This document shows positions 6,881 through 32,847 of a DNA stretch of 64,000 bases, one piece after another. Positions within the stretch are counted from its first letter, which is position 1, and each line of letters opens with the position of its first letter. The notes below the pieces were generated by a model that saw only the letters and a program-made list of their open reading frames with translations, was not told the origin of the DNA and made no database searches. Where the stretch lies: NCBI GenBank assembly GCA_964525295.1, contig CAZGEO010000001.1:9671-73670 (forward strand), given 5' to 3'. A program made the translations under genes and the position numbers. The stretch comes from an uncultured Candidatus Saccharibacteria bacterium. Its GTDB lineage: Bacteria > Patescibacteriota > Dojkabacteria > GCA-002793355.

Positions 6881-6901
6881 TCGAATTAACCGCAACGCAG
6901 G

Positions 6902-7381: not shown

Positions 7382-7415
7382 GGGACAGATTATTTTTAAT
7401 TTATACTTTCGGTAC

Positions 7416-7444
7416 TAGTATATGGTAGGTAATTAGAAATGTCA
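7416..7444 (-). promoter_or_regulatory. Predicted sigma70-type promoter of the pilin gene
   Basis: On the minus strand: TTGACA, 17-nt spacer, TATACT. It lies about 35 nt upstream of the pilin ATG. Confidence 0.45.
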
Positions 7445-7517
7445 ACTAAATAATTTGCAATTCTCAATTCCCAATTTTCAATTAATGCGAAATTGCAAAT
7501 CTTGGAGCACATTCACG

Positions 7518-7620
7518 CTTTAGTACTTTAATCCTTTAGTGCTTTAGCGCTTTACTGCTTTAGTTCTTTAGCGCTTTCGTGCTTTACTGCTTTAGTACTT
7601 TAGTGCTTTACTGCTTTACG
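7518..7620. repeat. Tandem array of 13 copies of an 8-bp unit CTTTANNN (consensus CTTTAGTG)
   Basis: Direct reading gives ctttagta ctttaatc ctttagtg ctttagcg ctttactg ... ctttacg. The array ends 12 bp before the exonuclease ATG. Confidence 0.9.
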
Positions 7621-7632
7621 TTATACTACCCA

Positions 7633-11296: not shown

Positions 11297-11307
11297 TTAT
11301 TAACGTA

Positions 11308-12087: not shown

Positions 12088-12135
12088 ATCCCATATTATA
12101 TCAACAATCTCTCAAAATTTTTAGTATACTTCAGT

Positions 12136-13361: not shown

Positions 13362-13468
13362 AGCCTATATTATATGATAGATACGCGTATTATGCAACTA
13401 ATACACCATATTGACTAAACAGCAGAAGAAACGTATACTTTACGTATATAACCTAACTGCCAGGTTTC

Positions 13469-17916: not shown

Positions 17917-18965
17917 GTGTTACTTCCTTCAAAGAGTCTCGTTTTGGAGTTATGATCGAACCTATCATTTCAATCTTTCTGGTATTGTGCACAGTAGCAT
18001 ACTTTACCTTCCCCGAAAAATGGGGCGTCTTCTACTTCTTCATTAATACTCCGCCTCTTTTTGTTTTTGCACCAATTGCGATTTTCGCTGCATACGCTTT
18101 CCTCTTCAAACGTAAAATTGCGAAAATCGCACTACTCAATGCGGTCATTTTTGTCATTCTTTCAATTGCTGCGGTGAGACCGCACCTTTTAGGACCTCAA
18201 CTGTTATCGCAAGATATAAAAAGAGAACAACCTATTCAATATCGCATCTGCTCGTGGAATACCGCCTATTTCTTTGAATTCAATAGAACTGAATCTTTTA
18301 ACTACCTTGCACAAAAGAATTGTGACATCATACTATTACAAGAAGTATGGCGAAGCGATTTACTAACTATTGAGTTAGAACAATACAAGACAAGTCATTT
18401 TCCTGAACATGAACTGATTGCGAACGAAGAATTCGTCATTATTTATCCCAAAACACTAAAATTACTCAAACAATATGAATCTGAGTACAAAGGCCATTTT
18501 GCCGTAGGTTTGTCATTGCCTGGAGAAAAATCAGTTATTATTATCAATGCTCACATTTGGAATCCTATTGTTCCAAGACCGTTTTATACAGAAATTGATA
18601 CGGTAGCTTATCTTGATGGACGAAAAACACGTGAACTTGAACAAACTGAATTAATCAACTTCGTTAATTCGCGAATATCAGAAAATCAACGTATAGTATT
18701 AATGGGTGATTTCAACACAACACAAAATAATGAATTCTTTGCAAAGTTAACTGCTCCCGGCACGAGATTACAGCATACTTCGCCTCTAATTGCGATTGCA
18801 GAGCCTATTTGGTCAAAACAATCTACGTATCCAGCTTCATCGCCATTTCTCCGACTCGATTATGCATTCGTCAGCAAACCACAAGCGAATAGAGCAGAGC
18901 TTAAAAAAGAATGTCGCCCAGAGTTTGCCGATCACTGCTTGATGATTTTAGAAGTTCTGTTATAA
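17913..18965 (+). CDS. Membrane-anchored endonuclease/exonuclease/phosphatase (EEP) family protein
   Basis: Three or four N-terminal TM helices followed by an EEP domain (ILLQEVW, INAHIW, MGDFNT). Confidence 0.7.
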   Translation: MSVTSFKESRFGVMIEPIISIFLVLCTVAYFTFPEKWGVFYFFINTPPLFVFAPIAIFAAYAFLFKRKIAKIALLNAVIFVILSIAAVRPHLLGPQLLSQDIKREQPIQYRICSWNTAYFFEFNRTESFNYLAQKNCDIILLQEVWRSDLLTIELEQYKTSHFPEHELIANEEFVIIYPKTLKLLKQYESEYKGHFAVGLSLPGEKSVIIINAHIWNPIVPRPFYTEIDTVAYLDGRKTRELEQTELINFVNSRISENQRIVLMGDFNTTQNNEFFAKLTAPGTRLQHTSPLIAIAEPIWSKQSTYPASSPFLRLDYAFVSKPQANRAELKKECRPEFADHCLMILEVLL

Positions 18966-18974
18966 TTCATCTAC

Positions 18975-19047
18975 GGGCAGTTAGCTCAGCTGGTAGAGCA
19001 CGTCATTGACATTGACGTGGTCATAGGTTCGAGTCCTATACTGCCCA
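18975..19047 (+). tRNA. tRNA-Val (anticodon GAC)
   Basis: Cloverleaf by hand: acceptor GGGCAGT/ACTGCCC, D-arm GCTCAGCTGGTAGAGC, anticodon stem CGTCA/TGACG with loop TTGACAT, T-arm ATAGGTTCGAGTCCTAT, discriminator A. CCA is not encoded. Confidence 0.9.
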
Positions 19048-19048
19048 T

Positions 19049-19095
19049 GGGTGTTTGGCAATCTCGCAGAGGTTGGCAGACACCCATTTTGTTAC
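19049..19095 (+). terminator. Hairpin plus U-tract after tRNA-Val
   Basis: GGGTGT...ACACCC stem followed by ATTTTGTT. Confidence 0.4.
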
Positions 19096-19128
19096 ATAGG
19101 CGATGAACCCAATATTACGAAGTAAGAT

Positions 19129-19182
19129 TGAAGGTTCGAGTCCTATTCCGAGTTTACGAGGAATATGGAATATACTGCCCCT
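19129..19182 (+). repeat. Interrupted duplicate of the tRNA-Val 3' end (pseudo-att remnant)
   Basis: aggttcgagtcctat matches the tRNA T-arm exactly (15/15). After a ~25-bp insertion comes atatactgccc, repeating the acceptor 3' strand. A third copy tatactgccca lies at 19282-19292. Confidence 0.7.
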
Positions 19183-19446
19183 ATTTTTATAACGAAGTGG
19201 CAACAGTACTTTTGAATACACTTATAATGTCGAGAACCTATGCTGCGAAGCAGTAATAGGTAAGAGGCCTAAAGCATAGCTTTACAAAGTATACTGCCCA
19301 TTCAATATCAGTCTCATAGCTTCCCTGAATTATGACATCAATACCCTAAACCAATAACTTTTAGTACTTCAGCACATTAATAATTTATCGCTCTACTGCT
19401 TTAATGCTTTATTTTTCCCGAGTTCCTGTAGTTGATTTCAATACTA

Positions 19447-19475
19447 TTGACATTGACACTGTCATAATTTATAAT
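19447..19475 (+). promoter_or_regulatory. Predicted sigma70 promoter for the small secreted protein gene and glycan cluster
   Basis: TTGACA, 17-nt spacer, TATAAT, about 28 nt upstream of the ATG at 19504. Confidence 0.5.
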
Positions 19476-19503
19476 ACGAGTAAATTAGCTATAGAAAATA
19501 ACT

Positions 19504-19767
19504 ATGAAAACTCTAACAAAATTAGCAGTTGCAGTAATGAGCGTATTCTCATTTGCAAACATCAAATCAGTTGCAGCACAAACTGACACTGGTTCAGTAT
19601 CAGGAGTTGTTACGACATTAAACGTAACACCATCAGCAACAATCACCGCAACTGGTGAAGTTCTTGGTGCAACTCAAAACGCAGGGCTCTTAAGCTACTG
19701 GTGGGTTATCTTACTGATCGTTGTTGTATTGGGTGTTGTTCTCTTCTTCGCAACTAAGAAGAGCTAA
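19504..19767 (+). CDS. Small Ser/Thr-rich secreted protein with C-terminal TM anchor
   Basis: Signal peptide MKTLTKLAVAVMSVFSFA, a Thr/Ser-rich middle region, and a C-terminal hydrophobic helix followed by KKS. Confidence 0.6.
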   Translation: MKTLTKLAVAVMSVFSFANIKSVAAQTDTGSVSGVVTTLNVTPSATITATGEVLGATQNAGLLSYWWVILLIVVVLGVVLFFATKKS

Positions 19768-19807
19768 TCAGTACTTGAACGAATCTATAGCACTTAAGAA
19801 GAAAGTC

Positions 19808-21157
19808 ATGGTTGTATCCTTAGGGATACTGACTATGGCTTTCTTTTTTTTATTACGCAGTCATTTTCTTACACCGTGGAAACTTTATTCAGATTCCTAC
19901 AAGTTTTTGCTAATCGCTGAGTCTTTTGGCAAAATTCGCTCTCCTCTTGAAATGTTTCCTCAAGTTAATTGGCCTTTTGAAACGTTATTATGGCCATATA
20001 AATGGTTATACCCAATCATAATTGCAATTTTTCACAAATTCTCCTCACTTATTTCGCTCGCGACAACAACAGAGAGTCTTGCTCACTCGGTAAATCTAAT
20101 TTCATCAAGCGTAATTCCGCTACTCATTGGGGCAATAATTCACAAAAAGACCAGAAACTCACTTCTTACAATCATCTCAATTCTATTGATTGGAATTTCT
20201 GGCTCACAATTAATTTGGAGTGGCTTTATTGTAACTGAGCCTTTAGCATTAAGTCTAATACTTGCGTATTTCCTATCAGAGAAAACTGGCTTCAAATTTT
20301 TATTTGCAGTTCTTATGTTTCTTGCGCGACCCGAATTAATAATCATTCCGATTATCACAATTCTATTGAGTAAAATTACAAAAACTCAAGTTGCCAAGTA
20401 TGCAGCGATAACCCAATTACTCACAGTAGGAATAATTACACTATTATTCGCAATGACCACCTACTTTACAACCTATTGGCAATTAGATTTACTCATTTTT
20501 GCTGCTGTCATCACAGCACTTGCATTCATCATATTCAACAAAATTAAGACTATTGATCTCGAATTAACCACTACTTTTATAACACTTTCGATTATCTACC
20601 TTCTCTTCAATCCAAACATCGAACGATATGGCGTTATTCTCATTCCACTAATGCTTATTGCGATATTTGCATCGTTTGAAAAGTTTGAATTAACAAAACA
20701 ATTAAACTCACTTTCAACGAAGATTGCAATTTCAGTAGCGATAGTAGTTCTAGCAAGTATTCAATTCTCCGCAGTGATTAATTACCCCATTCGAACAAGC
20801 CAAGACTATCATAGTGAGATTGCCGAGAAAGCATTGCGTTATGCGATTCAAAATGATTACACAAAGATTGTCACTTATCAGGTTGATCCGCTACTTTACA
20901 CGGCTTACAAGTACAATTCGCCTGTTTCCGTTTATGCAATTGAAAAGTTAGCCGATATAGATGAAGTTTATAGCGAAAAATGGTATAATACGCTATTTCT
21001 AATTGATGAATCAGCTGAATACTATGATACAAAACTAGATTTCACCAGATTGAAACTAGAAACATCCTTTTATTCACAAGAACCCTTCAAAACTAACAAC
21101 GAAACTATACCCAACGCAAAAGTAGAATTATGGCGAACAAAATTGGATTTGGAATAA
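19808..21157 (+). CDS. Polytopic membrane glycosyltransferase, GT-C fold (GT39/ArnT/PMT-like), putative
   Basis: About 11 predicted TM helices in the N-terminal two-thirds and a soluble C-terminal domain, matching the architecture of GT39/GT83 proteins. The start was moved to the ATG at 19808. Confidence 0.5.
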   Translation: MVVSLGILTMAFFFLLRSHFLTPWKLYSDSYKFLLIAESFGKIRSPLEMFPQVNWPFETLLWPYKWLYPIIIAIFHKFSSLISLATTTESLAHSVNLISSSVIPLLIGAIIHKKTRNSLLTIISILLIGISGSQLIWSGFIVTEPLALSLILAYFLSEKTGFKFLFAVLMFLARPELIIIPIITILLSKITKTQVAKYAAITQLLTVGIITLLFAMTTYFTTYWQLDLLIFAAVITALAFIIFNKIKTIDLELTTTFITLSIIYLLFNPNIERYGVILIPLMLIAIFASFEKFELTKQLNSLSTKIAISVAIVVLASIQFSAVINYPIRTSQDYHSEIAEKALRYAIQNDYTKIVTYQVDPLLYTAYKYNSPVSVYAIEKLADIDEVYSEKWYNTLFLIDESAEYYDTKLDFTRLKLETSFYSQEPFKTNNETIPNAKVELWRTKLDLE

Positions 21158-22731
21158 CAATACTGGCGATAATTGCATTGTCTGTTTTTTACTTAGTTAC
21201 TCGTACCAATACAGTTGCAACAATCAGCCCAATATCAGCTGAATTAGCAAAACAATTATTTGTAGAAAGTGATAAAGCGGTTAAATCTCTCAAGTTGCCA
21301 GCATTAATTTCCAACGGAATGGTTCTCCAGCGAGAGACGCCAATTTTACTTTGGGGTACTGCTGTTCCTAACTCTCTCATCGAAGTTACCATCCAAAATC
21401 GTACGGTAAAAACTCTGTCAAATAATGACGGCTTATGGGCAGTCAATTTACCAAAATTAAAAACTTCAGCCAGCGAAACACTCTCGATAAATGCAGCAAA
21501 TGAAACAAGAATTTTTACAAATATCGCAATTGGTGACGTTTGGCTTTGTAGCGGACAAAGTAACATGGCATGGCCAATTTCAAAAACAACCGATGATGCA
21601 ATAGATGAATTGCAATCAATTGAAATTGCAAACTTAAGATTCTTCTCAGTCAAGAAAATTTATGATTTGAATACCTATTCTTCATTCGCAAGTGAAGAAA
21701 GACCAATAGGCAATTGGTTTACGGCTGAATCGAAAAAAGAATTTGAAAATTTTTCTGCCGTATGCGGACTTTCAGCAAAAGAAATTTACGAAAAAACGCA
21801 AATACCTCAAGGTTTTATTTTGAGCGCACATGCAACAACATACATTGAAGCATGGTTAAATCTCACACAACTTGACGAATTCCCAGAATATCGCCCAATA
21901 ATATCTACTATGTATACTGACGCTAATATTGAAAACTCGTACTCATACATTAAAGCTTGTGATAAAAGGCTTATACCTGCGAGCCATTATAATACTATGA
22001 TCTTTCCAATAATAAATTTTACCTACAAAGGAATCATTTGGTATCAGGGAGAAAATAATATCAAGCATACAGAGAATTACGCAGGCTTATTAACTTCTCT
22101 GCTAGGACATTGGAAAATAAACCCCGCAAAAGGTGCTAATGTACGAGATATTTATGTAATTGAACTTGTTAGTTTTGATGAACCAGGTGACAAACATTCA
22201 TGGGCTGCAATTAGACAATCACAATCGATTGCGGTATCGAACCAAACACGAACATTCCTTATACCTGCAAGTGATCTTGGGGATCCAGAAAATGTTCATC
22301 CTGTAGATAAGATGCCCCTTGTATCTAGACTAAATACTAGAATTTTGGCAAATTCATACGGCCTTGCAACAGATATTGTTGCACCAAAAGTACATACAAT
22401 CACAATTCGTGAAAATAGTATTGAATTAATTGTTAACATCACGAACGATACCTTAGAAGAAGACAAAACCTCAGAGATTTCAGGTTTTGAACTTGCTTCA
22501 ACAGACGGCCAATATTTTTCAGCGCGTGCAGTATTATCGAAGGGAAACATCATTTCAGTTACTTCAGATAAGGTGCCAAGTCCACGATATATTCGCTACC
22601 GATGGAGTAATGTGCCACAAAACGGCATATTCATCACAAAAAGTTCTAGACTGCCAATTCTAGGATTTTCAAATAATCCAGCTGATTTTAGTAATAAATC
22701 ATCGCTAAATTCACTTACTTCATGCAATTAG
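21130..22731 (+). CDS. Sialate O-acetylesterase-like carbohydrate esterase (DUF303/SIAE family)
   Basis: Signal anchor plus the CSGQSNMAWP motif (GQSN block) typical of 9-O-acetylesterases. Confidence 0.65.
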   Translation: MANKIGFGITILAIIALSVFYLVTRTNTVATISPISAELAKQLFVESDKAVKSLKLPALISNGMVLQRETPILLWGTAVPNSLIEVTIQNRTVKTLSNNDGLWAVNLPKLKTSASETLSINAANETRIFTNIAIGDVWLCSGQSNMAWPISKTTDDAIDELQSIEIANLRFFSVKKIYDLNTYSSFASEERPIGNWFTAESKKEFENFSAVCGLSAKEIYEKTQIPQGFILSAHATTYIEAWLNLTQLDEFPEYRPIISTMYTDANIENSYSYIKACDKRLIPASHYNTMIFPIINFTYKGIIWYQGENNIKHTENYAGLLTSLLGHWKINPAKGANVRDIYVIELVSFDEPGDKHSWAAIRQSQSIAVSNQTRTFLIPASDLGDPENVHPVDKMPLVSRLNTRILANSYGLATDIVAPKVHTITIRENSIELIVNITNDTLEEDKTSEISGFELASTDGQYFSARAVLSKGNIISVTSDKVPSPRYIRYRWSNVPQNGIFITKSSRLPILGFSNNPADFSNKSSLNSLTSCN

Positions 22732-22734
22732 CAT

Positions 22735-23727
22735 ATGGAGAGCAAACAGCAAAAATATCTTCCTGTACTTGATTGGCTCCGTGCGATCGCAATATCTCTG
22801 GTTCCATTGACGCACGCTAGCTACAATGAATTATTTAACGTCAATAAAATTGTTGCCTACGCAGACGTTTTTGCACACTTAAGCGTGCCAATCTTTGTAT
22901 TTATTTCTGGGTTTCTTTCTCTTGGTGCAACACCACAGAAAATTAAAGAACGTCTACCAAGAATTTTATTACCATATCTTCTCATGAGTATCTTTTGTCA
23001 GGTAGTCAAATTTAGAGATGATTTAATTGGTAATTTCTGGACGATTATTTACAATATTCTTACTGCAGATTCATTCGGTATTTACTATTTCGTTTTTGTA
23101 ATTGTCTATTTGTATTTATTTGCTATCATTCTTTCAAAATATCAAAAACATTTGGGCAAATTTTTACTAATAACATTATTCATAAGTATTCCTTTCTTCA
23201 TTTATAGTGCGATTCCTTCACAAAATCTTTATCAAATTTCAAGAGAATTGTATTATCGCTTCCCACTTAATTGGCTTATCTTCTTTATCGCAGGCATGTG
23301 GTTCAAGGCAAATGATATATTCTTGAAACTACAGCAATTCAAAATACATTTTGCACTAGCTTTTCTTGCTTCACTCACATTGCTCGTAATTGCTGGGGAA
23401 CTCGGTTTCTGGGTCGTTTACGGCTCAATTTTCTGGTTCATTTTTAGTTCATTAGGCATCGTTGCAATATACTTACTTTTTGAAAATGTAAAAGTATATC
23501 CGATTATTAAATATCTTTCGGAAACATCTTATTCTATTTACCTGTTACATATCATTCCATTGGCATTTTTGTATTATTTCATTTCAATACCAGATTCAGC
23601 GATTGTCGCATACTCATTACCAATAACTTTAGTACTCGCAGTAGCAGTTACCATATTCTCAATAATTGGCAGGGAAGTTACGAAATATATCTTTAAGGAT
23701 AAATCACCATATATCATCGGCAGTTAA
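22735..23727 (+). CDS. Acyltransferase family 3 membrane O-acyltransferase
   Basis: Ten-TM protein with the N-terminal LDWLRAIAI motif typical of acyltransferase_3. Confidence 0.7.
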   Translation: MESKQQKYLPVLDWLRAIAISLVPLTHASYNELFNVNKIVAYADVFAHLSVPIFVFISGFLSLGATPQKIKERLPRILLPYLLMSIFCQVVKFRDDLIGNFWTIIYNILTADSFGIYYFVFVIVYLYLFAIILSKYQKHLGKFLLITLFISIPFFIYSAIPSQNLYQISRELYYRFPLNWLIFFIAGMWFKANDIFLKLQQFKIHFALAFLASLTLLVIAGELGFWVVYGSIFWFIFSSLGIVAIYLLFENVKVYPIIKYLSETSYSIYLLHIIPLAFLYYFISIPDSAIVAYSLPITLVLAVAVTIFSIIGREVTKYIFKDKSPYIIGS

Positions 23728-23728
23728 T

Positions 23729-24826
23729 ATGAAAAAAATACTTTTTCTCAACTCAGAATTTCCGCCAATTGGAGGAGGTGCAAGCCCTGTCAGTTATGAA
23801 ATTGCACTAAAACTTTCTGAAAATGGTTATGACATCGATGTAGTTACGGCTGGTTATAAAAAGCTACCAAAATTCGAAGAAATCAATGAGCATTTAAGAA
23901 TTCATCGGGTGAAATGTCTGCGCTCCAAAAAAGAGATTTCTACACCAATTGAGCAACTTAGCTATCTAGTCAGTGCATTTTTCAAAGCTTTTTCGTTACA
24001 TAAAAAGAAGCAATTTGATTTTAGCTATGCACATTTCATTATTCCAACAGGAGCATTAGCGCTAGCGCTAAAGTTGATCACCGGACTCAAATATTTGATT
24101 TCTGCTCACGGTAGCGACGTTATTGGACATAACTCAAGATTCAAAGTTCTGTACAAGGTACTTGTTGCACCATGGAAATTGATTTTGAATAACGCTGAAA
24201 AAATTACCGTTCCTTCACAACATTTATTTGAAAAACTAACTACAACACATTCCCACTTGAGCGCTGACAAAGTAATCATTCTACCGAACATTGTAAAAAG
24301 TGACATATATAAACCAATGAATAAAGAAAAATATATTCTTACCGTTTCTAGAATCAATCCACAAAAAGGTATCCAAGACTTATTAACGGCCTTTGCGAAC
24401 ACGAAAAATTTCGATTGGAAAATAAAAATAGTAGGCGAGGGACCATATAAAGAGAATTTACAAAAAATTGCAGTCGATCTTGATATATCAAAGCAAGTTG
24501 AATTTGTTGGTTGGGCTAGCACACTAGAGAAGAAACAAGATTTATATGGTCATGCAGCAATTTATGTTAATCCAAGTTACGCAGAAAGTTTCGGTATTAC
24601 CACAATCGAAGCAATGCAAGCAGGTTGCCATTGCATCATTTCAGAAACTGGTATCGCAAAACAACTACAGAATGTTAAAACATTTCGACCTGGTGATATA
24701 AAAACACTGCAAGAACATCTAAACGAAGCATTTACAAGTGATAAACTAACCTTGTCGAGTGATCACGAACTCTTTACAGAAGAAAAAGTTGTACCTTTAC
24801 TGCTTAACATATTACAATCAATGTAA
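23729..24826 (+). CDS. Glycosyltransferase family 4 (GT-B, retaining)
   Basis: N-terminal FPPIGGGAS, and the C-terminal EGFGLPVLEAM-like motif ESFGITTIEAMQAGCHCI. Confidence 0.8.
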   Translation: MKKILFLNSEFPPIGGGASPVSYEIALKLSENGYDIDVVTAGYKKLPKFEEINEHLRIHRVKCLRSKKEISTPIEQLSYLVSAFFKAFSLHKKKQFDFSYAHFIIPTGALALALKLITGLKYLISAHGSDVIGHNSRFKVLYKVLVAPWKLILNNAEKITVPSQHLFEKLTTTHSHLSADKVIILPNIVKSDIYKPMNKEKYILTVSRINPQKGIQDLLTAFANTKNFDWKIKIVGEGPYKENLQKIAVDLDISKQVEFVGWASTLEKKQDLYGHAAIYVNPSYAESFGITTIEAMQAGCHCIISETGIAKQLQNVKTFRPGDIKTLQEHLNEAFTSDKLTLSSDHELFTEEKVVPLLLNILQSM

Positions 24827-25845
24827 TGAATCAAAATTCACAGAAATTTCCAATTACACTCATTAGTGTCGTAGTTGTTGCGATTCTCGCTGCAGTCATA
24901 TACTACGTGAACTTTCTTCCATTCGGACTAAACACTCATAATGAGCTAATTTTTGGTAAAGAAAATGACACGTTAGGAGTATTCAAATTATTACCTTCAA
25001 GCGCATGGGGAAGCAGAGATGTAGAACAATCGGGCACTACCTACAGAACGATAGAAGGGTCGGCTCAAATAACGTACCAACCAAAATATGTTCTTACCAA
25101 AAGTAAAATTTCGTTAACTATTGAAGGAGATGATGTTGCTGCCTATACCGATACTGTTCCTTTTAATCCCGAACTTTTCAATAAATGGCAGCACAATTGG
25201 GACCTTAGCACTAGAATTCCAACGGAATTTAAAGGTAATACCTATTTATTTGATGGTTGTACATATTTCGATGGTAAATCAATAATGTATTACGAGAATA
25301 CAAAAGATTTATTTGAAAGTGGAACTTTTTCTCTCTACGTTGAATGGCAACCAAATGAAGTGCTAGATTATCAGCAAATAGTAGGGCATTTCAACTGGGA
25401 ACTGTTTCAATCAAAGAACTTCGTAATTTTCCAGGTCGGCAAGATGGCTGGAACAACCTCAACGACTTTCTACTCAATTCGAGCTCCAATTGATCAAACC
25501 TTCTTCAATAAAAAGCATAAAATTCTCATCCAATATAAACCTGATTCAACCAATGGCTACATCGAGATGTTCCTTGATGACAAATTTGTAGAAAGAAGAA
25601 ATATCGGTTCTGCAAGAATCGACCCACAATATGGTGACAATAACCTAACATTTGGCTGGTCTTCACACAATTATCAGCAAAATCCACGGTTTAAAGGGTG
25701 TTTGTATAGAGTAGCTTACTCACAAGATTTGGCAATTACGCCGACAAAAGAATTGTCCTATACCTCAAATACCCCAGAAGCCTTATTCAATATTGTTGGA
25801 AAAGGAAAAATCTACAAAGCTAGTATTACCGTAGAAAAGCAATGA
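24826..25845 (+). CDS. Membrane-anchored concanavalin/LamG-like domain protein
   Basis: N-terminal TM followed by a beta-rich domain with a jelly-roll-like pattern (FSLYVEW, IVGH, FQVGK, YIEMFLDDK). Confidence 0.45.
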   Translation: MNQNSQKFPITLISVVVVAILAAVIYYVNFLPFGLNTHNELIFGKENDTLGVFKLLPSSAWGSRDVEQSGTTYRTIEGSAQITYQPKYVLTKSKISLTIEGDDVAAYTDTVPFNPELFNKWQHNWDLSTRIPTEFKGNTYLFDGCTYFDGKSIMYYENTKDLFESGTFSLYVEWQPNEVLDYQQIVGHFNWELFQSKNFVIFQVGKMAGTTSTTFYSIRAPIDQTFFNKKHKILIQYKPDSTNGYIEMFLDDKFVERRNIGSARIDPQYGDNNLTFGWSSHNYQQNPRFKGCLYRVAYSQDLAITPTKELSYTSNTPEALFNIVGKGKIYKASITVEKQ

Positions 25846-27716
25846 ATCGAAAAGATCTTATTTTTGCCCTAGGTTTTGTTTGTGTAGTACTACTTACCCT
25901 CATAGGGGGTGATATTTGGGGACTTTTTAGAATTCGCATGCTTATCGACATTCCGACACTAATCATCGTTACTTTTTTAACCTTTGTGTTGCTTATTAAC
26001 CTTGTCGCAACTCGATTTCTCTTCCCTTTACAAGATACATTACAGAAAATTTTTATTTATTCTACAGTATTCTTTGCGCTAGGAACTTCAATCATTGCAA
26101 TACTTTTCGGGCATTCATTACTTACCTGGTTTGGCATAGCAGTCGTATTTCTTGTAAGTTCGTTACTCATAAACGATTTCGCCCATCGTGCGGATATCGA
26201 AACCGAATCATTTGAAATACCAAAAAATTTCTTTTTACCAATTTATGCAATTATTGGAATTCTATTTCTAGCGACGAGACTGTACATACTTATAACTTAT
26301 CAAGGCTCATACCTAGACGAGTATTTACACATATTCACAGGTGTTTCTTGGGTGAATCAAGCTTTCGGTGAAATCTACAAAGGAATTGAGTATTACCGCG
26401 GAATATACTTAACCGCATTAAGTGCAGTATCATTTCTCATTTTCGATTTCTCATTTTACGCACAAAAGGGTATTCCATTGCTCTTTAGCATCATCAATTT
26501 CATACTTTTTATTTCGTTCTCGAAGAAATATATCACAAATAAATGGATGCACATTTTGTCTATTTGTGCATACGCTATCACCCCAATTTTGATATTTAAT
26601 GCAACATATATGAGAACTTATATCTTTTTTGAAACGTTCGCATATATTTCGTTTTTCTTGGTAAACAGAACAATTCGTTATTATGAAGAGAAGAATTGGC
26701 AAATGCTTTCAGCATTTGCCGTATCAACAGTTATTTTCATTGCATTCATCTTCTTTACTAGAGATGTAGAATCTATGTTATTCCTCTTAATAATTGCTTT
26801 TGGCGGATTATTCTACATCTTATTTACTGCAGCGACACAAATAAAGTTCGATTTTCTTGCAAAATTACCTCTTAAGCATTGGCATATTCTGGCAATAATC
26901 CTACTTGCTTTACCATTTTTAAATGTAACAAAATATCTCGATTTATTCTTAAATGGACAATTAACTCACGGGGATGGTGGCGTACAAAAATTCCTACAAT
27001 TCTTTTTTGTAGACAATCTTTTAATTACCGTTTACTTCTTAGTCTTGTGGATTGTGACACTCTTCGAAAAGAACATTGAGAGAAAGATCTTCTTTGCTGT
27101 TATCGCATCATTATTTATCTTTCACAACATAATCACACCTGATTATCGAACATTACGTGGTATTTTTTACTTCTTTCCCTTCTTTATTATTGGTGCATTT
27201 ACAGTTATTGAGAAACTCTATTCTTCACGATTTATTCTTATGGTTTGCATAGGTATAGTTCTTGCAGTCTCCCCATTATTCTCAGCTAGGCAATACTTTA
27301 TTAATGGCCCTGGTATACCAAAAGAAATTGATTACTATCCATTCAAAAAATATTACGAAACCGTAAAATTTGAATGCAAAGATCGAAAAATTCTCTCAAT
27401 GATGCATTCAAACTATATTTCGAATTTTCATGGTGTTAAACCATATGCCATAATTTATCTTCGCCAAGAACAACTAGCAATTGACGAACGGTATTATAAA
27501 GGTGATACCGGCAATTATTTTCAGTCAGTTGATAATGTTCCTGTATTAAGTAGCTATATTGATGTCGAAAATCTGCTCAAAAATGAAAAAGTTTGTCTTC
27601 TGCTAACTACAGATTTTCGCCATACAGGGCTCTACATTACGGGGAATGACTATTCAGCACTATTTGGCAATTTAACAACGACTCCCGTTCAATCACTGAG
27701 AATCCTCAAAAATTAG
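25842..27716 (+). CDS. Polytopic membrane glycosyltransferase, GT-C fold (GT39/ArnT-like)
   Basis: At least 12 TM helices, and an acidic DE motif in an early loop (YLDEYLHIF) typical of the PMT/ArnT GT-C families. Confidence 0.55.
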   Translation: MNRKDLIFALGFVCVVLLTLIGGDIWGLFRIRMLIDIPTLIIVTFLTFVLLINLVATRFLFPLQDTLQKIFIYSTVFFALGTSIIAILFGHSLLTWFGIAVVFLVSSLLINDFAHRADIETESFEIPKNFFLPIYAIIGILFLATRLYILITYQGSYLDEYLHIFTGVSWVNQAFGEIYKGIEYYRGIYLTALSAVSFLIFDFSFYAQKGIPLLFSIINFILFISFSKKYITNKWMHILSICAYAITPILIFNATYMRTYIFFETFAYISFFLVNRTIRYYEEKNWQMLSAFAVSTVIFIAFIFFTRDVESMLFLLIIAFGGLFYILFTAATQIKFDFLAKLPLKHWHILAIILLALPFLNVTKYLDLFLNGQLTHGDGGVQKFLQFFFVDNLLITVYFLVLWIVTLFEKNIERKIFFAVIASLFIFHNIITPDYRTLRGIFYFFPFFIIGAFTVIEKLYSSRFILMVCIGIVLAVSPLFSARQYFINGPGIPKEIDYYPFKKYYETVKFECKDRKILSMMHSNYISNFHGVKPYAIIYLRQEQLAIDERYYKGDTGNYFQSVDNVPVLSSYIDVENLLKNEKVCLLLTTDFRHTGLYITGNDYSALFGNLTTTPVQSLRILKN

Positions 27717-27718
27717 AA

Positions 27719-28951
27719 TTATTTTGAGGCGCGTAATAACAAATACACCCAAATTCTAACACTTAGTGCCATGATTAATTGCAGGACTACTACTGCAACA
27801 AAAATTGCAGAAACTCCGCCATATGCGTAAGCAAGAGGAAGCGCAAACAAACTGATTAACCCTAGTGGAACATAAGAATAACTTAAAATTTTTGCATACC
27901 CGGCTGGCACAATAATGCCTGTATCGACCAAATTCGTCCAAATATATATTGCCAATTGCGCAAGCATTGAATAAACTACTGTTTTATTAGCCAATAATTC
28001 ATTATACTGTGGAAAAACTACGGGTAGTACAAGAATTAAACCATAAAAAAGCCCAACGCAGATAATTGCAACCGGTAACAACCATATAGAAAATTTCCCT
28101 AATTCATTCCTCAAAAAAGATTTATTTTTTACAATCTCTTCTTTTGCGTATCTAGGTGCTAAAATTTGGCCAACGATTGAAAAAGGAAACGCAAATAAAA
28201 GCATCACTCTCGATAGTAACTCGAAGGTTGCGAGCTCATTAGTCGCACCAACATTTCCCAAAACAATTAAGACATATCTTGAAAACAAGAAATAACTAAT
28301 GGCAGCAATACCAAATTGAACTGAGAACTTAAGCAACGGCTTCACATATTTGAGCGTTACAGCAAAGTTTGGTCGAATTTTTCCTAAGTAAAATAATCCA
28401 ACTGTCATAAATACCCAGTAGAAGGTTTGAGCGAGTAATCCTCCTAAAATTCCATATTGTTTCAAAAGAAAATAGGTGACAAAAATTGCGATAAGCGAAC
28501 TAACTACAGTTACGACTGCGCTTTCATTATATTTCTCAAGACCCCTTAAAACACCCTCAAAAAGTGTTGCAATGACCGAAAAAGCAACCATTACGAGTAA
28601 AGCCACTAAATGTAATGGATTGACTATACTTAGCAACCCCAAAAACAGTAATATACTAATAACAAGAACGCCAAGAATTACACTAACCAGAGCAATAATC
28701 AAGCCAGCACCGGTAATTCTTTCGGTATTCTCTTTCGTTGGATTATTCGCAACAAATCTTGTTGCTGCTGTTGAGATACCAAAATCAGCCAACATATACG
28801 CAATAGAATATACCGCCAACAGATAACTAAACTGAGCATATTCTGGAATTGGTAAAATGAGTGCTGCAATAAAACTAGTAAGCAATATTACCGCCTGTTT
28901 GAATCCTACCGTAATAAATCTCAATACAAAACTTTTTTTTAATGAATGCAT
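27719..28951 (-). CDS. Oligosaccharide flippase (Wzx/MOP superfamily polysaccharide biosynthesis protein)
   Basis: 410-aa protein with 12 TM helices, and a Wzx-type N-terminal region. Confidence 0.7.
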   Translation of the reverse strand: MHSLKKSFVLRFITVGFKQAVILLTSFIAALILPIPEYAQFSYLLAVYSIAYMLADFGISTAATRFVANNPTKENTERITGAGLIIALVSVILGVLVISILLFLGLLSIVNPLHLVALLVMVAFSVIATLFEGVLRGLEKYNESAVVTVVSSLIAIFVTYFLLKQYGILGGLLAQTFYWVFMTVGLFYLGKIRPNFAVTLKYVKPLLKFSVQFGIAAISYFLFSRYVLIVLGNVGATNELATFELLSRVMLLFAFPFSIVGQILAPRYAKEEIVKNKSFLRNELGKFSIWLLPVAIICVGLFYGLILVLPVVFPQYNELLANKTVVYSMLAQLAIYIWTNLVDTGIIVPAGYAKILSYSYVPLGLISLFALPLAYAYGGVSAIFVAVVVLQLIMALSVRIWVYLLLRASK

Positions 28952-29916
28952 TAAAATGGCTCTTTTATATAAAGAAACGATGCATCTTTTTTCTTATTCA
29001 TCGATTGAATAATCTTACGTTGTTTCAGCATGTGTGGCAAATTTTTCAAGAAGATTCCAATCGATTTAAAATATGCGACAATAATACCGAAATTTCTTTT
29101 TTTAACAGCAACGCTCAGGTAAATAAAAGGGTAGACTAATGCAGCAAAAAAGATACGGAACAATTCTTTCAATGGAAAATTTTTTACCATGACTGTTAGA
29201 ATTCCCGATAAATAGTAGGTAAACTTCCAAGAAAAGTATTTCTTATCATCATGATTCCCCATACCAATATGCTCGAGCAATTCGGCATTATATAAATAAA
29301 CTTTATATCCTGCAGCGTATGCTCTTGCAGAAACATCTGTATCATCTAGCATGAAAGGTTGAATTGTGTCGTAACCACCAAGTTTCTCCCAAATCTCTTT
29401 TTTAAAGAATACACCTCCACCATGATACGACGGTACTACAATTGGCCCCGAATGCGTAGTCATTTTTTCAAGCTTTACTGCATTCTTATGAATTTTTGTT
29501 CCATACAATGAATAATAGATACCGTAATACTTTGTTTTCTTTGCTCCAGCATCGTATAAACCGACGCCCAATAATGCTGCATCCTCTAACTTGAGAAAGG
29601 CTTCAAATAAGTTGGTGATGTAACTTCTAGATTCTGGCAAAATATCATTATCTAGTAATAATACGTACTCACCACTAGCTAATGAAACCGCTGTATTTTT
29701 ATTTACCCCATACCCATGACGTTCGTCACCTAAGCGTTTATATCGAATTTGAGGGAAATTCTTTTTAATATATTCCTCTGTACCATCATGCGAAAAATCA
29801 TCAGAAACTACAATTTCGAGGTTTGGATAATCTTGCTGTAACCAGACTGGCAATGTTTTTTCTAACATTGCACGCTCATTTACTGAGGTGAAGGCAATGG
29901 TAATTTTTGGGTTCAT
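28951..29916 (-). CDS. Glycosyltransferase family 2
   Basis: N-terminal Rossmann-like GT-A fold with the DxD-type motif VSDDFSHDGTEE. The start overlaps the upstream gene. Confidence 0.75.
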   Translation of the reverse strand: MNPKITIAFTSVNERAMLEKTLPVWLQQDYPNLEIVVSDDFSHDGTEEYIKKNFPQIRYKRLGDERHGYGVNKNTAVSLASGEYVLLLDNDILPESRSYITNLFEAFLKLEDAALLGVGLYDAGAKKTKYYGIYYSLYGTKIHKNAVKLEKMTTHSGPIVVPSYHGGGVFFKKEIWEKLGGYDTIQPFMLDDTDVSARAYAAGYKVYLYNAELLEHIGMGNHDDKKYFSWKFTYYLSGILTVMVKNFPLKELFRIFFAALVYPFIYLSVAVKKRNFGIIVAYFKSIGIFLKNLPHMLKQRKIIQSMNKKKDASFLYIKEPF

Positions 29917-30872
29917 TTACTTGATTCTCTAATCAGATAGCTCTTTTTATCACCGCTTTCGTAATAGGCACGAAGCATAATTTCTCCTAGAAAACCGAAA
30001 AAGAGGAATTGCATACCAATAAAGAAAGTCATGATACTTATAATGAAAAATGGGTTACCGGTAATGTCTGACATTCCCAAAATTTTCATTAAAATTGTTG
30101 CTACAAAAGAGAGGCCTGAAAGCCCCAAAGAAGCTAAAGTTAATGGAGCAATCATCTGTGTAGGAGTAGTTTTTCGCATCATCAACATTTTAAGATTGAC
30201 GATATCAACAATTACCTTAAACATTCTTCCGAGCCCATATTTTGATTCACCATATTTTCTTGGTGCATACTTCACAACAAGCTCACCAATGTTTGCACCC
30301 AAATCATGGGCGATGTATGCAATAAATCTATGTAACTCACCATATAATTTGATGTTTTTGAACAATCTTGCGGTAGCAAGCTTTACGGAACATCCAGCAT
30401 CGTGCAAATGATGTGCCCTAAATGCTTTTCTAATAACCCAGTTCGCAATGAGTGATGGCATTCGTCGAGATTTTGATTCTTGCCAACGTTCTTTTCGCCA
30501 TCCAACCATCATGTCGTATTTACCGGTCTTTACAATCTCATACATTTTTACGAGATCTTCTGGAAAGTTTTGCAAGTCTCCATCTAATGTTGCAATATAA
30601 TTGCCAGTAGCTAGGTCTAAACCTGCTGCGAGAGCAGTACTTCGACCACTAGTTCTCATGAGAGAGATAAATTTTTGCGCTGGATTTTTCGCATTGACTT
30701 CTCGCAAAACCTGTCTTGAATTATCTTTTGAATTATCATCAACCCAAATAACTTCGTACGGAATACCTGCGAATGCAGTATCAATTAAACTCGCTAATTC
30801 GGGAATACTTTCACTTTCGTTCAAAACGGGGATCACTATCGACACTTCAACTTTGCTAATAGTTTTTTTCAT
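29913..30872 (-). CDS. Polyprenol-phosphate glycosyltransferase (GT2, GtrB/ArnC/Dpm1-like)
   Basis: VSIVIPVLNE, WVDDNSKDNS and ATLDGDLQN motifs plus two C-terminal TM helices, which is the GtrB architecture. Confidence 0.8.
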   Translation of the reverse strand: MKKTISKVEVSIVIPVLNESESIPELASLIDTAFAGIPYEVIWVDDNSKDNSRQVLREVNAKNPAQKFISLMRTSGRSTALAAGLDLATGNYIATLDGDLQNFPEDLVKMYEIVKTGKYDMMVGWRKERWQESKSRRMPSLIANWVIRKAFRAHHLHDAGCSVKLATARLFKNIKLYGELHRFIAYIAHDLGANIGELVVKYAPRKYGESKYGLGRMFKVIVDIVNLKMLMMRKTTPTQMIAPLTLASLGLSGLSFVATILMKILGMSDITGNPFFIISIMTFFIGMQFLFFGFLGEIMLRAYYESGDKKSYLIRESSK

Positions 30873-30924
30873 GGATTATTATAACACTATCTTATAGTAT
30901 TTTCAACTTCACTTGTGTCTAGTT

Positions 30925-31620
30925 TTACGTGGCAAACTTAGCAATTAACCTCTTTACCGCACCAACAGCACTCTCTAAGCCACTTTTTCCTTTTTCTACC
31001 GTTTTTGAAGGGTTTTTAACAATAAAATGTGCATCTTGAGGTGCTCGAATAATTTTCTCACGAGATTCTTGTAAACGCTTTGTTGGATTATCACGATCGC
31101 CAGATAAAATTCGCTTTTCCATTTCTTCTAGGGAATCTGGCACTATCATAATAGTTAGTACATTACACAAGCTCTCCAATGCTTTCTCCATAAATCTTGC
31201 GCCATTATTTTCTGCGCAATAAAGTGGAATCTTACGAGAAATTATTGCTCGTTTTACTGATTCATAAGGAGTTCCATACAAATTTCCATAGTGAAAATTA
31301 TGCTCCAGCAAATTGTATTGTCGAATAGCAGACCTAATATAAGAGTTTGTTGGTTCACCGGTTTTTTGCTGTCGCATCCATAAGTAATCTTTGTCTGATT
31401 CACCTTTACGGGGATTACGACTTGTTGCAGTTCTTACGTAGTGAAATTTTCCTGTTCTTAATAAAATATCTTTAATTGTATCTTTGCCGGCACCAGATGG
31501 CCCAATAATATTCACCCACAAAAGTTTACCTGGATTAACAACGAATTGCTTACCTTGAAACACTAATGGTGAAATATCAGTTTGTCTTGAAGACGAAAAA
31601 ATTTGGGGCAGTATTTCCAT
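30925..31620 (-). CDS. gmk: Guanylate kinase-like protein with N-terminal extension
   Basis: P-loop GPSGAGKDT and TSRNPRKGE resemble the guanylate-kinase GPSGVGK / TTRxPRxGE motifs. There is an extra N-terminal extension of about 35 aa. Confidence 0.6.
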   Translation of the reverse strand: MEILPQIFSSSRQTDISPLVFQGKQFVVNPGKLLWVNIIGPSGAGKDTIKDILLRTGKFHYVRTATSRNPRKGESDKDYLWMRQQKTGEPTNSYIRSAIRQYNLLEHNFHYGNLYGTPYESVKRAIISRKIPLYCAENNGARFMEKALESLCNVLTIMIVPDSLEEMEKRILSGDRDNPTKRLQESREKIIRAPQDAHFIVKNPSKTVEKGKSGLESAVGAVKRLIAKFAT

Positions 31621-31823
31621 AGGTAATCTTATCAGATTAATTACAAATTTTTAATTATCAATACTCAATTCTAAACCAAACTTTTTCCTACAAATTACAC
31701 TATTTTCCCGAATTGATAATTGAACATTACCAATTGACAATTGCCTTAGACTACAGCTTACCAACGTAAAATTGGGCAATACTTGCATTTTCTTCATTTA
31801 CTATATACAATCAAATCGTAACT

Positions 31824-32627
31824 ATGGCAAACCTTGATGAGTTTCTAACAGATTTAACACAAACAACAATCCCTACGCTTGATACTGAAGCAAAATCTCA
31901 ATTTGGCCCTTTCAAAACTTCAATTTTACCTATTCCTCATAGCATACCACTTTCTTTTAACACTCAAATTTCTATTGAAGAACCTACACAAACAACTAGA
32001 ATGCTCCTCGGTTTAATGAAGAGAAGAAATGAATTCCTATATCTGCAGGCGATAGATCATGCTGCTCATACGGTGAATTTTGCAACAATGATTGGTCTTT
32101 CAATCCGTGAAATTAATCTATTGTATACTCAAGCACTTCTTCAGGGAATTGGAAAAGCATTTTTCTTGAATCTTGCAATGGCACCAAGATCATTAACAGC
32201 AGATGAAAATAAAGATTTGCAAAAACATTCAATACTCTCGTTCTTAATTCTGCGAAAATTCGATTATCCTGAAATTCTTGCTTATGGAGCTCTATACCAC
32301 CACGTTTCTTACAGTAAAGCACTTGGATATCCTGATCCTGAAGGTGACATTCAAGATGCAGTAGAGAAAGTCGCACAAGAATATGGCTTTTCAAAATTCG
32401 TTCCCAACGTTGTATTACCAACAGCAATTCCACATAAACATTGGCAACTGTACAGTATTGTTTACCTAACCAACGCACTTTCTGCTGCTATTGATTTTAC
32501 TAAATCGTATAAAAAGCCTCTAGAATTATCAGAAGTAGCGCATGACTTTGAAAGCTACTGGACTGAGTGGTACAACCCAGATTTACGAGAAAAGTTTCAT
32601 CAATACGTTGATTGGCTGAGGAAATAA
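31824..32627 (+). CDS. HD-GYP-like domain protein with degenerate HD motif
   Basis: HAAHTVNFATMIGL matches the first His motif. LLQGIGK sits where LHDIGK is expected (HD replaced by QG). YHHVSYSKALGYPD matches HHE..DG.GYP. Confidence 0.45.
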   Translation: MANLDEFLTDLTQTTIPTLDTEAKSQFGPFKTSILPIPHSIPLSFNTQISIEEPTQTTRMLLGLMKRRNEFLYLQAIDHAAHTVNFATMIGLSIREINLLYTQALLQGIGKAFFLNLAMAPRSLTADENKDLQKHSILSFLILRKFDYPEILAYGALYHHVSYSKALGYPDPEGDIQDAVEKVAQEYGFSKFVPNVVLPTAIPHKHWQLYSIVYLTNALSAAIDFTKSYKKPLELSEVAHDFESYWTEWYNPDLREKFHQYVDWLRK

Positions 32628-32637: not shown

Positions 32638-32847
32638 TCAATTATCAATATTCAATTTCTTCGATGCCGTTTTAATTGATGATTGGAGTATTTTGATAAT
32701 CTGTTTTAAAACGCAATAAAAGTCAACGTATTCTTCGTTTGTTATTAGTTGCAAATCTCGAATTAAACTCAACCATGTTTCTGATTCGTAGGCTTCTTTT
32801 CTAGCTATCGCCAATTCATAAAGTCTTGAGTCACTATGCTTCATCAA
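32638..32847 (-). CDS. Small hypothetical protein
   Basis: 69-aa ORF in a gap. Coding status is uncertain. Confidence 0.25.
   Translation of the reverse strand: MMKHSDSRLYELAIARKEAYESETWLSLIRDLQLITNEEYVDFYCVLKQIIKILQSSIKTASKKLNIDN

Follow-up and report, generated by a model that had tools for sequence, protein, structure and literature searches.

What do two polytopic membrane proteins without a match in the profile libraries transfer, and to which acceptor, when their genes stand among those of glycosyltransferases (GTs) and a flippase? The question is raised by a gene cluster at positions 19447–30906 of a 64-kb stretch of DNA (hereafter the window; contig CAZGEO010000001.1 of assembly GCA_964525295.1) from an uncultured Candidatus Saccharibacteria bacterium. 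We lean toward the view that the cluster encodes a lipid-carrier-based machine for extracytoplasmic glycosylation, with a Thr-rich mini-protein of 87 amino acids (aa) as the best candidate acceptor. Its ground is the families of the genes, the GT-C fold and acidic motif of the larger polytopic protein, the arrangement in operons and the conservation of the module. The lipid-carrier logic had been put forward in a preliminary description of this DNA, and three parts central to it were verified: the synthase (GtrB/ArnC-like), the flippase (Wzx-type) and an enzyme of GT-C fold whose loop holds a conserved DE motif.

The 624-aa polytopic protein is called TM624, the 449-aa polytopic protein TM449 and the 339-aa anchored protein the partner. 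Loci used for comparison are L001, an independent contig of a relative; L004–L016, found in a motif-seeded scan and including L005, a metagenome-assembled genome (MAG) of Saccharibacteria; L017, a JGI metagenome fragment; and L018, an ENA contig of the same Saccharibacterium as L005. The features of the cluster are as follows (TM, transmembrane; nt, nucleotides).

19447–19475, plus strand: promoter-like site P1, TTGACA-17-TATAAT, 12/12, 29 nt upstream of the ATG of the mini-protein gene; a consensus match only.
19504–19767, plus strand: mini-protein, 87 aa, with a signal peptide, the motif TD(T/N)GSVSGVVTT, a Thr/Ser-rich stretch, VLG(A/T), a C-terminal TM helix and KKS.
19808–21157, plus strand: TM449, polytopic, some 12 helices followed at the C-terminus by an alpha/beta domain of roughly 120 aa.
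21130–22731, plus strand: SASA/CE6-type SGNH esterase or transferase (PF03629, 5.4e-11), with an N-terminal TM anchor and facing outward.
22735–23727, plus strand: AT3 (Acyl_transf_3) membrane acyltransferase (PF01757, 2e-30, residues 12–308 of 330).
23729–24826, plus strand: GT4 (GT-B fold) cytoplasmic glycosyltransferase (PF00534, 1e-27; PF13439, 1e-14); the start is taken from Logan gene calls.
24826–25845, plus strand: partner, 339 aa, with an N-terminal TM anchor and an extracytoplasmic LamG/ConA-like domain, overlapping the start of TM624 by 4 nt.
25842–27716, plus strand: TM624, predicted GT-C(A)-fold glycosyltransferase of a family without a model in the libraries searched.
27719–28951, minus strand: Wzx-type (MOP family) flippase (PF01943, 2.2e-15; PF13440, 1.3e-6), convergent with TM624 across a 2-nt gap.
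28951–29916, minus strand: GT2 (GT-A fold) glycosyltransferase (PF00535, 1.1e-20) with a C-terminal hydrophobic segment.
29913–30872, minus strand: polyprenol-phosphate sugar synthase of GtrB/ArnC/DPM1 type, with a GT2 domain and two C-terminal TM helices.
30878–30906, minus strand: promoter-like site P2, TTGAAA-17-TATAAT, 11/12, with an extended TG, directly upstream of the GtrB-like gene; a consensus match only.

The ten open reading frames (ORFs), all confirmed at the positions listed, form two convergent compact operons in which adjoining genes overlap by 1–28 nt or are separated by gaps of a few bases. The plus-strand operon runs from the mini-protein through TM449, the SASA esterase, AT3, GT4 and the partner to TM624, and the minus-strand operon from the GtrB-like GT2 (30872–29913) through the second GT2 (29916–28951) to Wzx (28951–27719). 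P1 and P2 are the best and second-best sigma-70-like sites within 18900–31900, and L001 has a counterpart of P1 (TTGACA-17-TACAAT) at the equivalent position. Promoter-like sites in total are not enriched in the region, and we therefore treat both as consensus matches only. The whole gene set is syntenic in L001, in the same order and with 37–75% amino acid identity. The association of these genes exceeds chance, given that they overlap or abut, are syntenic in L001 and include a mini-protein gene with a constrained ratio of nonsynonymous to synonymous substitutions (dN/dS; see below).

TM624 is the component whose nature is most directly approached through structure prediction. It has no Pfam, NCBIfam or PDB sequence match, even at E=10. 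A profile of 74 homologues, searched against the PDB, gave nothing beyond spurious TM matches, and no member of the family has a solved structure detectable by sequence. A word-indexed homologue search found the protein itself and one relative only; the family comprises 183 representatives of 50%-identity clusters at E≤1e-3 in an exhaustive HMMER search of 1.84 billion proteins with a two-sequence profile. An AlphaFold2 (AF2) model built from the family alignment has a predicted local distance difference test score (pLDDT) of 85.5 and a predicted TM-score of 0.80, with pLDDT above 90 over most of residues 130–624. Four extra N-terminal TM helices (residues 1–125) precede a GT-C core (128–486) and an outward C-terminal alpha/beta domain (490–624). 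Foldseek with this model returned ArnT first (4.6e-6), followed by STT3B, ALG12, AglB and PglB, and two independent fold searches both gave GT-C. At the level of fold, the model places TM624 in the GT-C superfamily. The N-terminal helices (25842–26216) are modeled at pLDDT 50–65, and most members of the family have a nonconserved N-terminal extension of 130–300 aa. In size and topology these helices recall a GtrA-type flippase, a likeness with no profile backing.

The DE motif noted in the preliminary description is YLDEYLH at residues 157–163 (26310–26330), just after a TM helix. Across the 74 homologues, D159, E160, H163, R186, K209, E264 and H428 are conserved in at least 90%, and Y184, R258 and R439 are invariant. 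In the model, D159-E160 lies between helix 128–152 and loop helix 160–171, at the start of the first outer-loop helix, a predicted placement like that in PMT and ArnT-type enzymes. Membership in those families, as the preliminary description had supposed, did not hold: neither TM624 nor TM449 passes the profile thresholds of GT39/PMT, PMT_2 or GT83. At gathering scores TM624 is not a GT39 PMT (PF02366), PMT_2 (PF13231) or GT83 ArnT protein, and PMT_2 is touched by only 4 of the 74 homologues, at best with 8e-4. An assignment as an STT3-type oligosaccharyltransferase (OST) was also rejected. TM624 matches neither PF02516 nor PF22627, in a search in which the true AglB of L004 scores 1e-24, and has no WWDYG-type motif; the sequence after the last TM helix, by inspection, is GPGIPKEIDYYPF.

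The fold matches both the ALG/PMT/ArnT and the STT3/AglB/PglB enzymes and therefore does not tell a monosaccharide donor from a flipped oligosaccharide. This bears on an alternative in which the cluster is a Wzx-dependent repeat-unit pathway with a GT-C in place of Wzy and WaaL, TM624 or TM449 polymerizing an oligosaccharide that GT2 and GT4 assemble on the lipid carrier and Wzx flips, or ligating it en bloc to an anchor, maybe the mini-protein. The matches to the en-bloc transferases AglB, STT3 and PglB, and a weak match of one TM624 family member to EpsG, agree with such a pathway. However, the fold is GT-C(A), and WaaL and SEDS (RodA/FtsW), the fold expected of Wzy or ligase enzymes, are not among the top structural matches; the missing STT3 profile match and WWDYG-type motif argue in the same direction. 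We consider this alternative unlikely, a judgment that also takes in the gene content described below.

TM449 is more elusive. It has no Pfam, NCBIfam or PDB sequence match even at E=10, and a PDB search with its profile also returned nothing. A word-indexed homologue search found TM449 only, and an alignment query added only the L005 protein (P0153). Two metagenome scans yielded a single fragment of 2.8 kb, L017, which came from the second scan, run with a sub-alignment; the first was empty. The family as found has four members: the proteins of the window, L001 (37% identity) and L005 (28%) and the N-terminal fragment in L017. All four share YSDSYKFLLI in the first loop and LIWSG; in TM449 the motif YSDSYK lies at 19886–19903, in the first outer loop. 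RPE and ERY are common to the three full-length members, both lying beyond the end of the L017 fragment. In L017 (positions 1–2784 of Ga0105099_10030317), the TM449-like fragment is divergent from a GT2-then-Wzx operon whose products are 50% and 37% identical to those of the window.

Comparison of family profiles with hhalign gave a signal that was not seen against single sequences. Aligned to four PMT_2-type paralogues, the profile of three TM449 sequences reached 76% probability and a score of 47.9 over 319 colinear columns, and with the L017 fragment added (four sequences) it reached 86% and 52.8; the alignments span about 310–320 colinear columns. Ninety block-shuffled profiles scored at most 27.1, which calibrates the run at 47.9 only, the run at 52.8 having no shuffle control of its own. 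A reversed-profile control gave 0.2%, and an unrelated control of PMT_2-type against Wzx profiles scored 32. Against the TM624 family the TM449 profile gave probabilities of 7–47%. In the profile alignment, D29 of TM449 falls on the D of W-x-DE, and ERY on the R-Y in a late helix. P0153 has a weak match to PF02366 (0.0024; 17.9 bits against a cut-off of 22.7). An AF2 model of TM449, made from two distinct sequences, is of too low confidence to place the fold (pLDDT 45). From these profiles, TM449 is probably a highly divergent GT-C. Of the two GT-C enzymes expected in the preliminary description, structure prediction and fold search thus uphold TM624, and TM449 is a probable second by the profile–profile match of 86%.

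A transporter was considered for TM449 and rejected, its profile giving 0.2% against that of Wzx, the sole transporter family used as a control. Neither polytopic protein appears to be a transporter: TM624 models as a GT-C, and the profile of TM449 is nearer to PMT_2-type GT-Cs than to Wzx.

The mini-protein gene opens the plus-strand operon and is called as a gene by the NCBI, Logan and ENA pipelines. Its product has the composition first ascribed to it, a signal peptide, a Thr/Ser-rich stretch and a membrane anchor; among about 39 exposed residues, 13 (33%) are Ser or Thr. It is a membrane protein of type I and gave no match in Pfam, NCBIfam or PDB sequences, even at E=10. The L001 orthologue has the same length and 55% identity, with dN/dS of about 0.38. 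The L005 counterpart, of 121 aa, adjoins the TM449 homologue in divergent orientation and follows the same plan: a signal peptide, LTDNGTVDGITT, VLGE, a longer low-complexity stretch rich in Ser, Thr and Asn, a TM helix and a charged tail. Mini-protein and TM449-family genes are thus adjacent in three genomes, with TM449 identity down to 28%, which strengthens the link between the two that had been drawn from the window. The mini-protein gene is real and conserved, and it goes together with that of TM449. Conserved flanks around a variable Ser/Thr-rich middle would fit a glycosylated linker and also suggest specific recognition. A sorting substrate of LPXTG, PEP-CTERM or PGF-CTERM type was rejected, with no such motif before the TM helix. 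In L018, the next gene past that of the mini-protein encodes a UDP-glucose/GDP-mannose dehydrogenase (5590–6873, minus strand), which hints at a uronic acid in the glycan.

Six genes are recognized by profiles, and Pfam, NCBIfam and PDB sequence searches confirm their earlier labels as GtrB-like, Wzx, GT2, GT4, AT3 and SASA. The product of 29913–30872 had been proposed as the polyprenol-P-sugar synthase because of its two C-terminal TM helices, and full-length alignment to ArnC and GtrB supports this type. It aligns end to end (9–315 of 319) with the NCBIfam model of ArnC (NF007986, 5e-43), has DGD at residues 97–99 as the DxD of its GT2 domain and, by hydropathy, TM helices at about 240–267 and 273–300. 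PDB matches are ArnC (9hwj, 1.3e-37), Synechocystis GtrB (5ekp, 7e-24) and DPMS (5mlz, 6e-18); other NCBIfam matches include PgfS (4.4e-34, the second-best) and AglJ (2.1e-17). All are below the equivalog cut-offs (147 vs. 529 bits for ArnC, 118 vs. 500 for PgfS and 63.5 vs. 325 for AglJ). Wzx scores 57.2 bits against a PF01943 cut-off of 28.2. The GT2 gene between these two overlaps the GtrB-like gene upstream by 4 nt and Wzx downstream by 1 nt.

AT3 is 65% identical to its L001 orthologue. The SASA protein has GQSN (21553–21564) and YQGE (22042–22053), the latter an (H)QGE-type block, as the SASA motifs are defined, and the SASA fold belongs to the SGNH superfamily (PMC9487903). AT3 proteins with an extracytoplasmic SGNH domain O-acetylate glycans (PMC7448272). 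Because SASA has an SGNH fold and AT3s partner with SGNH domains, the pair may be a split O-acetyltransferase. Both genes of the acetyl decoration and removal pair in the preliminary description are real (PF01757 and PF03629), and that pairing is not the sole reading of them. The window has an AT3 domain and an outward SGNH domain with catalytic blocks, in separate genes, and the SGNH protein may act as a transferase or as an esterase.

The scan for Pfam families covered 50 of the window's 51 ORFs with 150 aa or more, all but the 199-aa ORF 12058–12657, which neighboring genes largely overlap; it found no family for Wzy, Wzz/PCP or a priming phosphoglycosyltransferase. The 64 kb thus showed no standard Wzy/Wzz locus, which would have spoken against the preliminary description, and no profile of a WbaP/WecA primer or a ligase. 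Wzy, Wzz and priming phosphoglycosyltransferases were likewise not found in about 40 ORFs of the related loci. In both cases a divergent Wzy can evade profiles. The missing primer and Wzz count against polymerization or en-bloc ligation by a GT-C.

The motif-seeded scan of GTDB species representatives found 13 loci with TM624 homologues, in DPANN and methanogen archaea, in bacteria of the Candidate Phyla Radiation (CPR; Saccharibacteria, Parcubacteria, Paceibacterota and other Patescibacteria) and in one Myxococcales MAG. This patchy spread across domains suggests interdomain transfer among ultrasmall or episymbiotic organisms. Mapping of the ORFs in these loci with BLAST and hidden Markov models placed a Wzx homologue near the TM624 homologue in 8 of 13, a GT4 in 9, a full-length GtrB-like gene in 5 and a second GT-C in 5. 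Among the five loci that lack Wzx, two end at a contig edge directly behind the GT-C gene. The second GT-C is of PMT_2 type in four loci, in three of them above the Pfam gathering cut-off and in L004 slightly below it (22.7 vs. 26.1 bits, E of 1.2e-4); in the fifth it is a TM449 homologue. The fullest counterpart, L005, holds the mini-protein, TM449-like and GtrB-like proteins, several GT4 and GT2 enzymes (about six cytoplasmic GTs), Wzx, a partner and a TM624-like protein. The co-occurrence of Wzx and several cytoplasmic GTs with TM624 homologues in 8 of 13 loci and the six GTs of L005, with no recognizable Wzy, would suit a GT-C that polymerizes or ligates Wzx-flipped units.

In L004, a Methanobacteriota MAG (JAENZL010000003.1), a genuine AglB/STT3 (19379–21409, plus strand; PF22627, 1e-24) stands beside the TM624-type cluster. 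The TM624 family is therefore not simply a substitute for AglB, which speaks against an en-bloc role of TM624. The same locus has two pairs of a GT-C and a MOP flippase: a PMT_2 protein (6703–8250) beside a Wzx-like protein (5198–6706), and the TM624-like protein (9752–11515) near Wzx (12910–14193).

The adjacency of AglB in L004 and the frequency of the TM624 family in archaea would also accord with the acquisition, by a CPR bacterium, of an N-glycosylation module of archaeal type, with the GtrB-like protein as AglJ/AglD, the GT2 and GT4 as AglG/I/E, Wzx as AglR and the GT-C as an AglS- or OST-like enzyme. NCBIfam similarity to AglJ (2e-17) and AglG (1e-6) points the same way, as do N-x-S/T sequons in the mini-proteins (NVT in the window, NGS in L001 and several in L005). 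Nevertheless, all Agl matches are far under family cut-offs, the window has no STT3, AglB or PglB gene and the three mini-proteins share no sequon position. An N-glycosylation module is very improbable on this evidence.

The partner had no place in the preliminary description. It is translationally coupled to TM624 and conserved upstream of its homologues. The window protein has no direct Pfam, NCBIfam or PDB sequence match, even at E=10, and a genome scan with the 339-aa sequence as query found nothing. A homologue in L012 matches Laminin_G_3 at 3e-7 (ConA-like domain). A related N-anchored partner is encoded upstream of the TM624 homologue in 8 of 13 loci: directly upstream in L005, L007, L008, L011, L012, L013 and L015; in L006 the distance is about 1.2 kb, and two small ORFs on the opposite strand intervene. 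In a 368-ORF database, the first pass gave E-values of 3e-5 to 3e-4; L005 and L015 were reached only by iteration, which can drift.

A LamG/ConA-like domain implies carbohydrate binding, and this lends weight to an alternative in which the acceptor is a cell-wall or surface glycopolymer and not a protein. The GT-Cs would then add side-chain sugars to a polymer built elsewhere, Wzx would flip the lipid-linked sugar as GacK does, the partner would bind the polymer and the mini-protein would be accessory or unrelated. GacI/GacK/GacL and CsbB/GtcA/YfhO are precedents, and a separate acceptor-binding protein has been suggested for such systems (PMC8035078). An AT3/SGNH pair is typical of glycan O-acetylation (PMC7448272), and polysaccharide-modifying genes are typical of the related loci. 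In addition to extra GT2 and GT4 genes, these loci encode pyruvyl- and methyltransferases, AT3 and an asparagine-synthase-type amidotransferase, and in two of them an epimerase adjoins the GtrB-like gene. Conversely, a glycopolymer acceptor leaves unexplained why the mini-protein gene adjoins TM449 in three genomes and stands first behind the strongest promoter-like site, and no genes for a backbone (ABC exporter, LCP ligase, TagO/WecA) were seen in the window. We regard a glycopolymer acceptor as possible, though less probable than a protein.

Under the protein-glycosylation reading that we prefer, the GtrB/ArnC-like GT2 would charge polyprenol phosphate, at the inner membrane face, with a sugar taken from a nucleotide sugar; homology supports this step well. 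The second GT2, from the same operon, and the GT4 may then extend the lipid-linked intermediate. No priming phosphoglycosyltransferase is present, and the GtrB product itself is therefore the likeliest primer, resembling the role of AglJ in archaeal (Haloferax) N-glycan assembly. Wzx, a flippase by family, would carry the lipid-linked sugar or sugars to the outer face. There TM624, to judge from its fold and motif, would transfer sugar from the lipid carrier to an outside acceptor, with the membrane-anchored LamG-like partner probably holding the acceptor glycan. TM449, as a probable second and divergent GT-C, would O-glycosylate the mini-protein, which as the first gene product behind a perfect promoter-like site is the most likely acceptor and would become a small membrane-anchored mucin-like O-glycoprotein. 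Finally, AT3 and the outward SASA/SGNH protein may add or edit O-acetyl groups on the exported glycan.

Several points weigh against this reading. The identities given to the sugar, to its donor (mono- or oligosaccharide) and to the acceptor are inferences. The mini-protein accompanies the TM449 family only, in three of its four members, and is absent from the intergenic gap of L017; L005 alone among the 13 motif-scan loci has one, the other 12 carrying a TM624 homologue and no mini-protein. Its conserved N-terminal motif hints at a specific role beyond that of a passive substrate. The pyruvyl- and methyltransferases, epimerases and many GTs of the related loci make them resemble ordinary polysaccharide clusters, which favors a glycan polymer as the product. 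Wzx flippases classically carry pyrophosphate-linked oligosaccharide units, and a priming enzyme could lie beyond the 64-kb window. Characterized SASA enzymes are hydrolases (PMC9487903).

A bolder combination would make the mini-protein a proteinaceous membrane anchor for a surface glycopolymer in a lipid-auxotrophic CPR bacterium, a peptide substitute for a glycolipid anchor like that of lipoteichoic acid. TM449 would prime its threonines, and TM624 with the partner would be the GT-C ligase or polymerase for Wzx-flipped units. We hold this to be doubtful. If true, it would describe a route independent of Wzy and WaaL that is common to CPR bacteria and DPANN or methanogenic archaea, probably by interdomain transfer.

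The cluster is flanked by housekeeping genes (tRNA, guanylate kinase, BipA). The window also encodes a RuBisCO large subunit, components of type IV pili and MreB/MreC/PBP2, a gene content that fits a small-genome, CPR-like host. The guanylate-kinase-like gene (30925–31620, minus strand) directly precedes the GtrB-like operon, on the same strand, and does so in L001 too (54% identity); co-transcription and simple synteny are both possible. The RuBisCO gene (13469–14956, plus strand; PF00016, 1.9e-97; PF02788, 3e-27) is typical of the nucleotide-salvage form known in some CPR bacteria and archaea. The type IV pilus genes (4476–7381, minus strand) encode a PilC-like T2SSF protein, a PilB-like T2SSE ATPase and a pilin with an N-methyl motif; pilins are candidate O-glycosylation targets in Saccharibacteria (2024 preprint, 10.1101/2024.11.25.624915). 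A small ORF (32638–32847, minus strand) belongs to PF05635, the 23S rRNA intervening-sequence protein family, according to the Logan annotation of an identical contig. A metal-handling cluster (44006–49660, minus strand) encodes FtrD-like, heavy-metal P-type ATPase with HMA, DUF305 and DsbD_2/cupredoxin/HMA fusion proteins.

Glycosylation in CPR bacteria (Patescibacteria) is essentially unexplored, according to the preprint on Saccharibacteria pili (10.1101/2024.11.25.624915). CPR episymbionts live by surface contact with their hosts, and the cluster matters for the surface biology of both CPR and DPANN organisms. It is a compact, conserved system of ten genes in two operons with a dedicated candidate substrate. 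It includes a GT-C family without a Pfam or NCBIfam model, the carriers of which, as found, are mostly ultrasmall archaea and bacteria. The two-gene module of a GT-C and a membrane-anchored lectin-like partner may show how such enzymes recognize their acceptors. Saccharibacteria are genetically tractable, with mutants reported (10.1101/2024.11.25.624915), and the homologous cluster in L005 means that experiments may be possible if cultured strains carry it. The general mechanism is well known from Gram-positive and Gram-negative bacteria and archaea, and the advance is therefore incremental unless the acceptor is unusual, for example a protein anchor for a polymer.

How, then, does the cluster compare with known systems? 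The preliminary description had tied PMT-like systems to Actinobacteria, a restriction that does not stand: streptococcal GtrB with PgtC2 (S. pyogenes, S. pneumoniae) and PgfS/PgfM1/PgfE/PgfM2 (S. mutans) O-glycosylate extracytoplasmic Ser/Thr-rich regions (PMC12041528, PMC5856776). As in these systems, the window has a GT-A polyprenol-P-sugar synthase, one or two GT-Cs (two in Pgf) and Ser/Thr-rich membrane-associated acceptors, here a candidate. Unlike them, its GT-Cs lie outside Pfam and NCBIfam, and Wzx, GT2, GT4, AT3/SGNH and the LamG-like partner are extra. The streptococcal acceptors are disordered regions of housekeeping proteins, whereas the candidate here is a dedicated 87-aa protein encoded in the operon. 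With actinobacterial Ppm1/Pmt (GT39) the differences are larger: neither window protein matches PF02366 or has an MIR domain, the domain at the C-terminus is a different one and four helices extend TM624 at its N-terminus.

Multicomponent transmembrane glycosylation is also known from GacI/GacJ/GacK/GacL, CsbB/GtcA/YfhO and GtlA/GtlB and, in Gram-negative bacteria, from Gtr and ArnC/ArnT (PMC8035078). The Gram-positive polymer systems likewise combine a GT-A synthase, a flippase and a GT-C; a Wzx-type flippase has its parallel in GacK, and the acceptor-binding protein proposed in the review matches the LamG-like partner (PMC8035078). Unlike those systems, the cluster has no GtrA-type flippase, its GT-Cs fall outside PMT_2, YfhO and GT83, and it couples the translation of the synthase and flippase to that of additional cytoplasmic GTs. 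Wzx, GT2, GT4 and acetylation genes, and the pyruvyl- and methyltransferases of related loci, recall Wzx/Wzy loci for O-antigen, capsule and exopolysaccharide. However, Wzy, Wzz/PCP, primer and ligase are missing from the 64 kb, and proteins with a predicted GT-C(A) fold fill the place of the polytopic "unknown." The AT3 membrane domain and outward SGNH-superfamily domain stand side by side as in OafA and OatA (PMC7448272). Unlike in those enzymes, they are encoded by separate genes, SGNH first, and the SGNH protein is of SASA/CE6 type, the characterized members of which are esterases (PMC9487903).

The Agl pathway of Haloferax volcanii comprises the Dol-P-hexose synthases AglJ and AglD, soluble GTs, the Wzx-like flippase AglR, the GT-C-like mannosyltransferase AglS and the OST AglB. 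The window has the same set of a polyprenol-P-sugar synthase, GT2 and GT4 enzymes, a MOP flippase and a polytopic transferase, likewise with no pyrophosphate-priming enzyme. Unlike that pathway, it belongs to a bacterial host, the window has no AglB/STT3 and the similarity is at a generic family level only. By profile thresholds, the components are not those of GT39, PMT_2, GT83, STT3, ArnC, PgfS or AglJ, and the cluster works like known multicomponent transmembrane glycosylation systems. It differs from them in four features: a coupling with Wzx and cytoplasmic GTs in which primer, Wzy and Wzz were not found; two candidate GT-C families not modeled in the libraries searched; the conserved anchored partner; and a miniature candidate acceptor.

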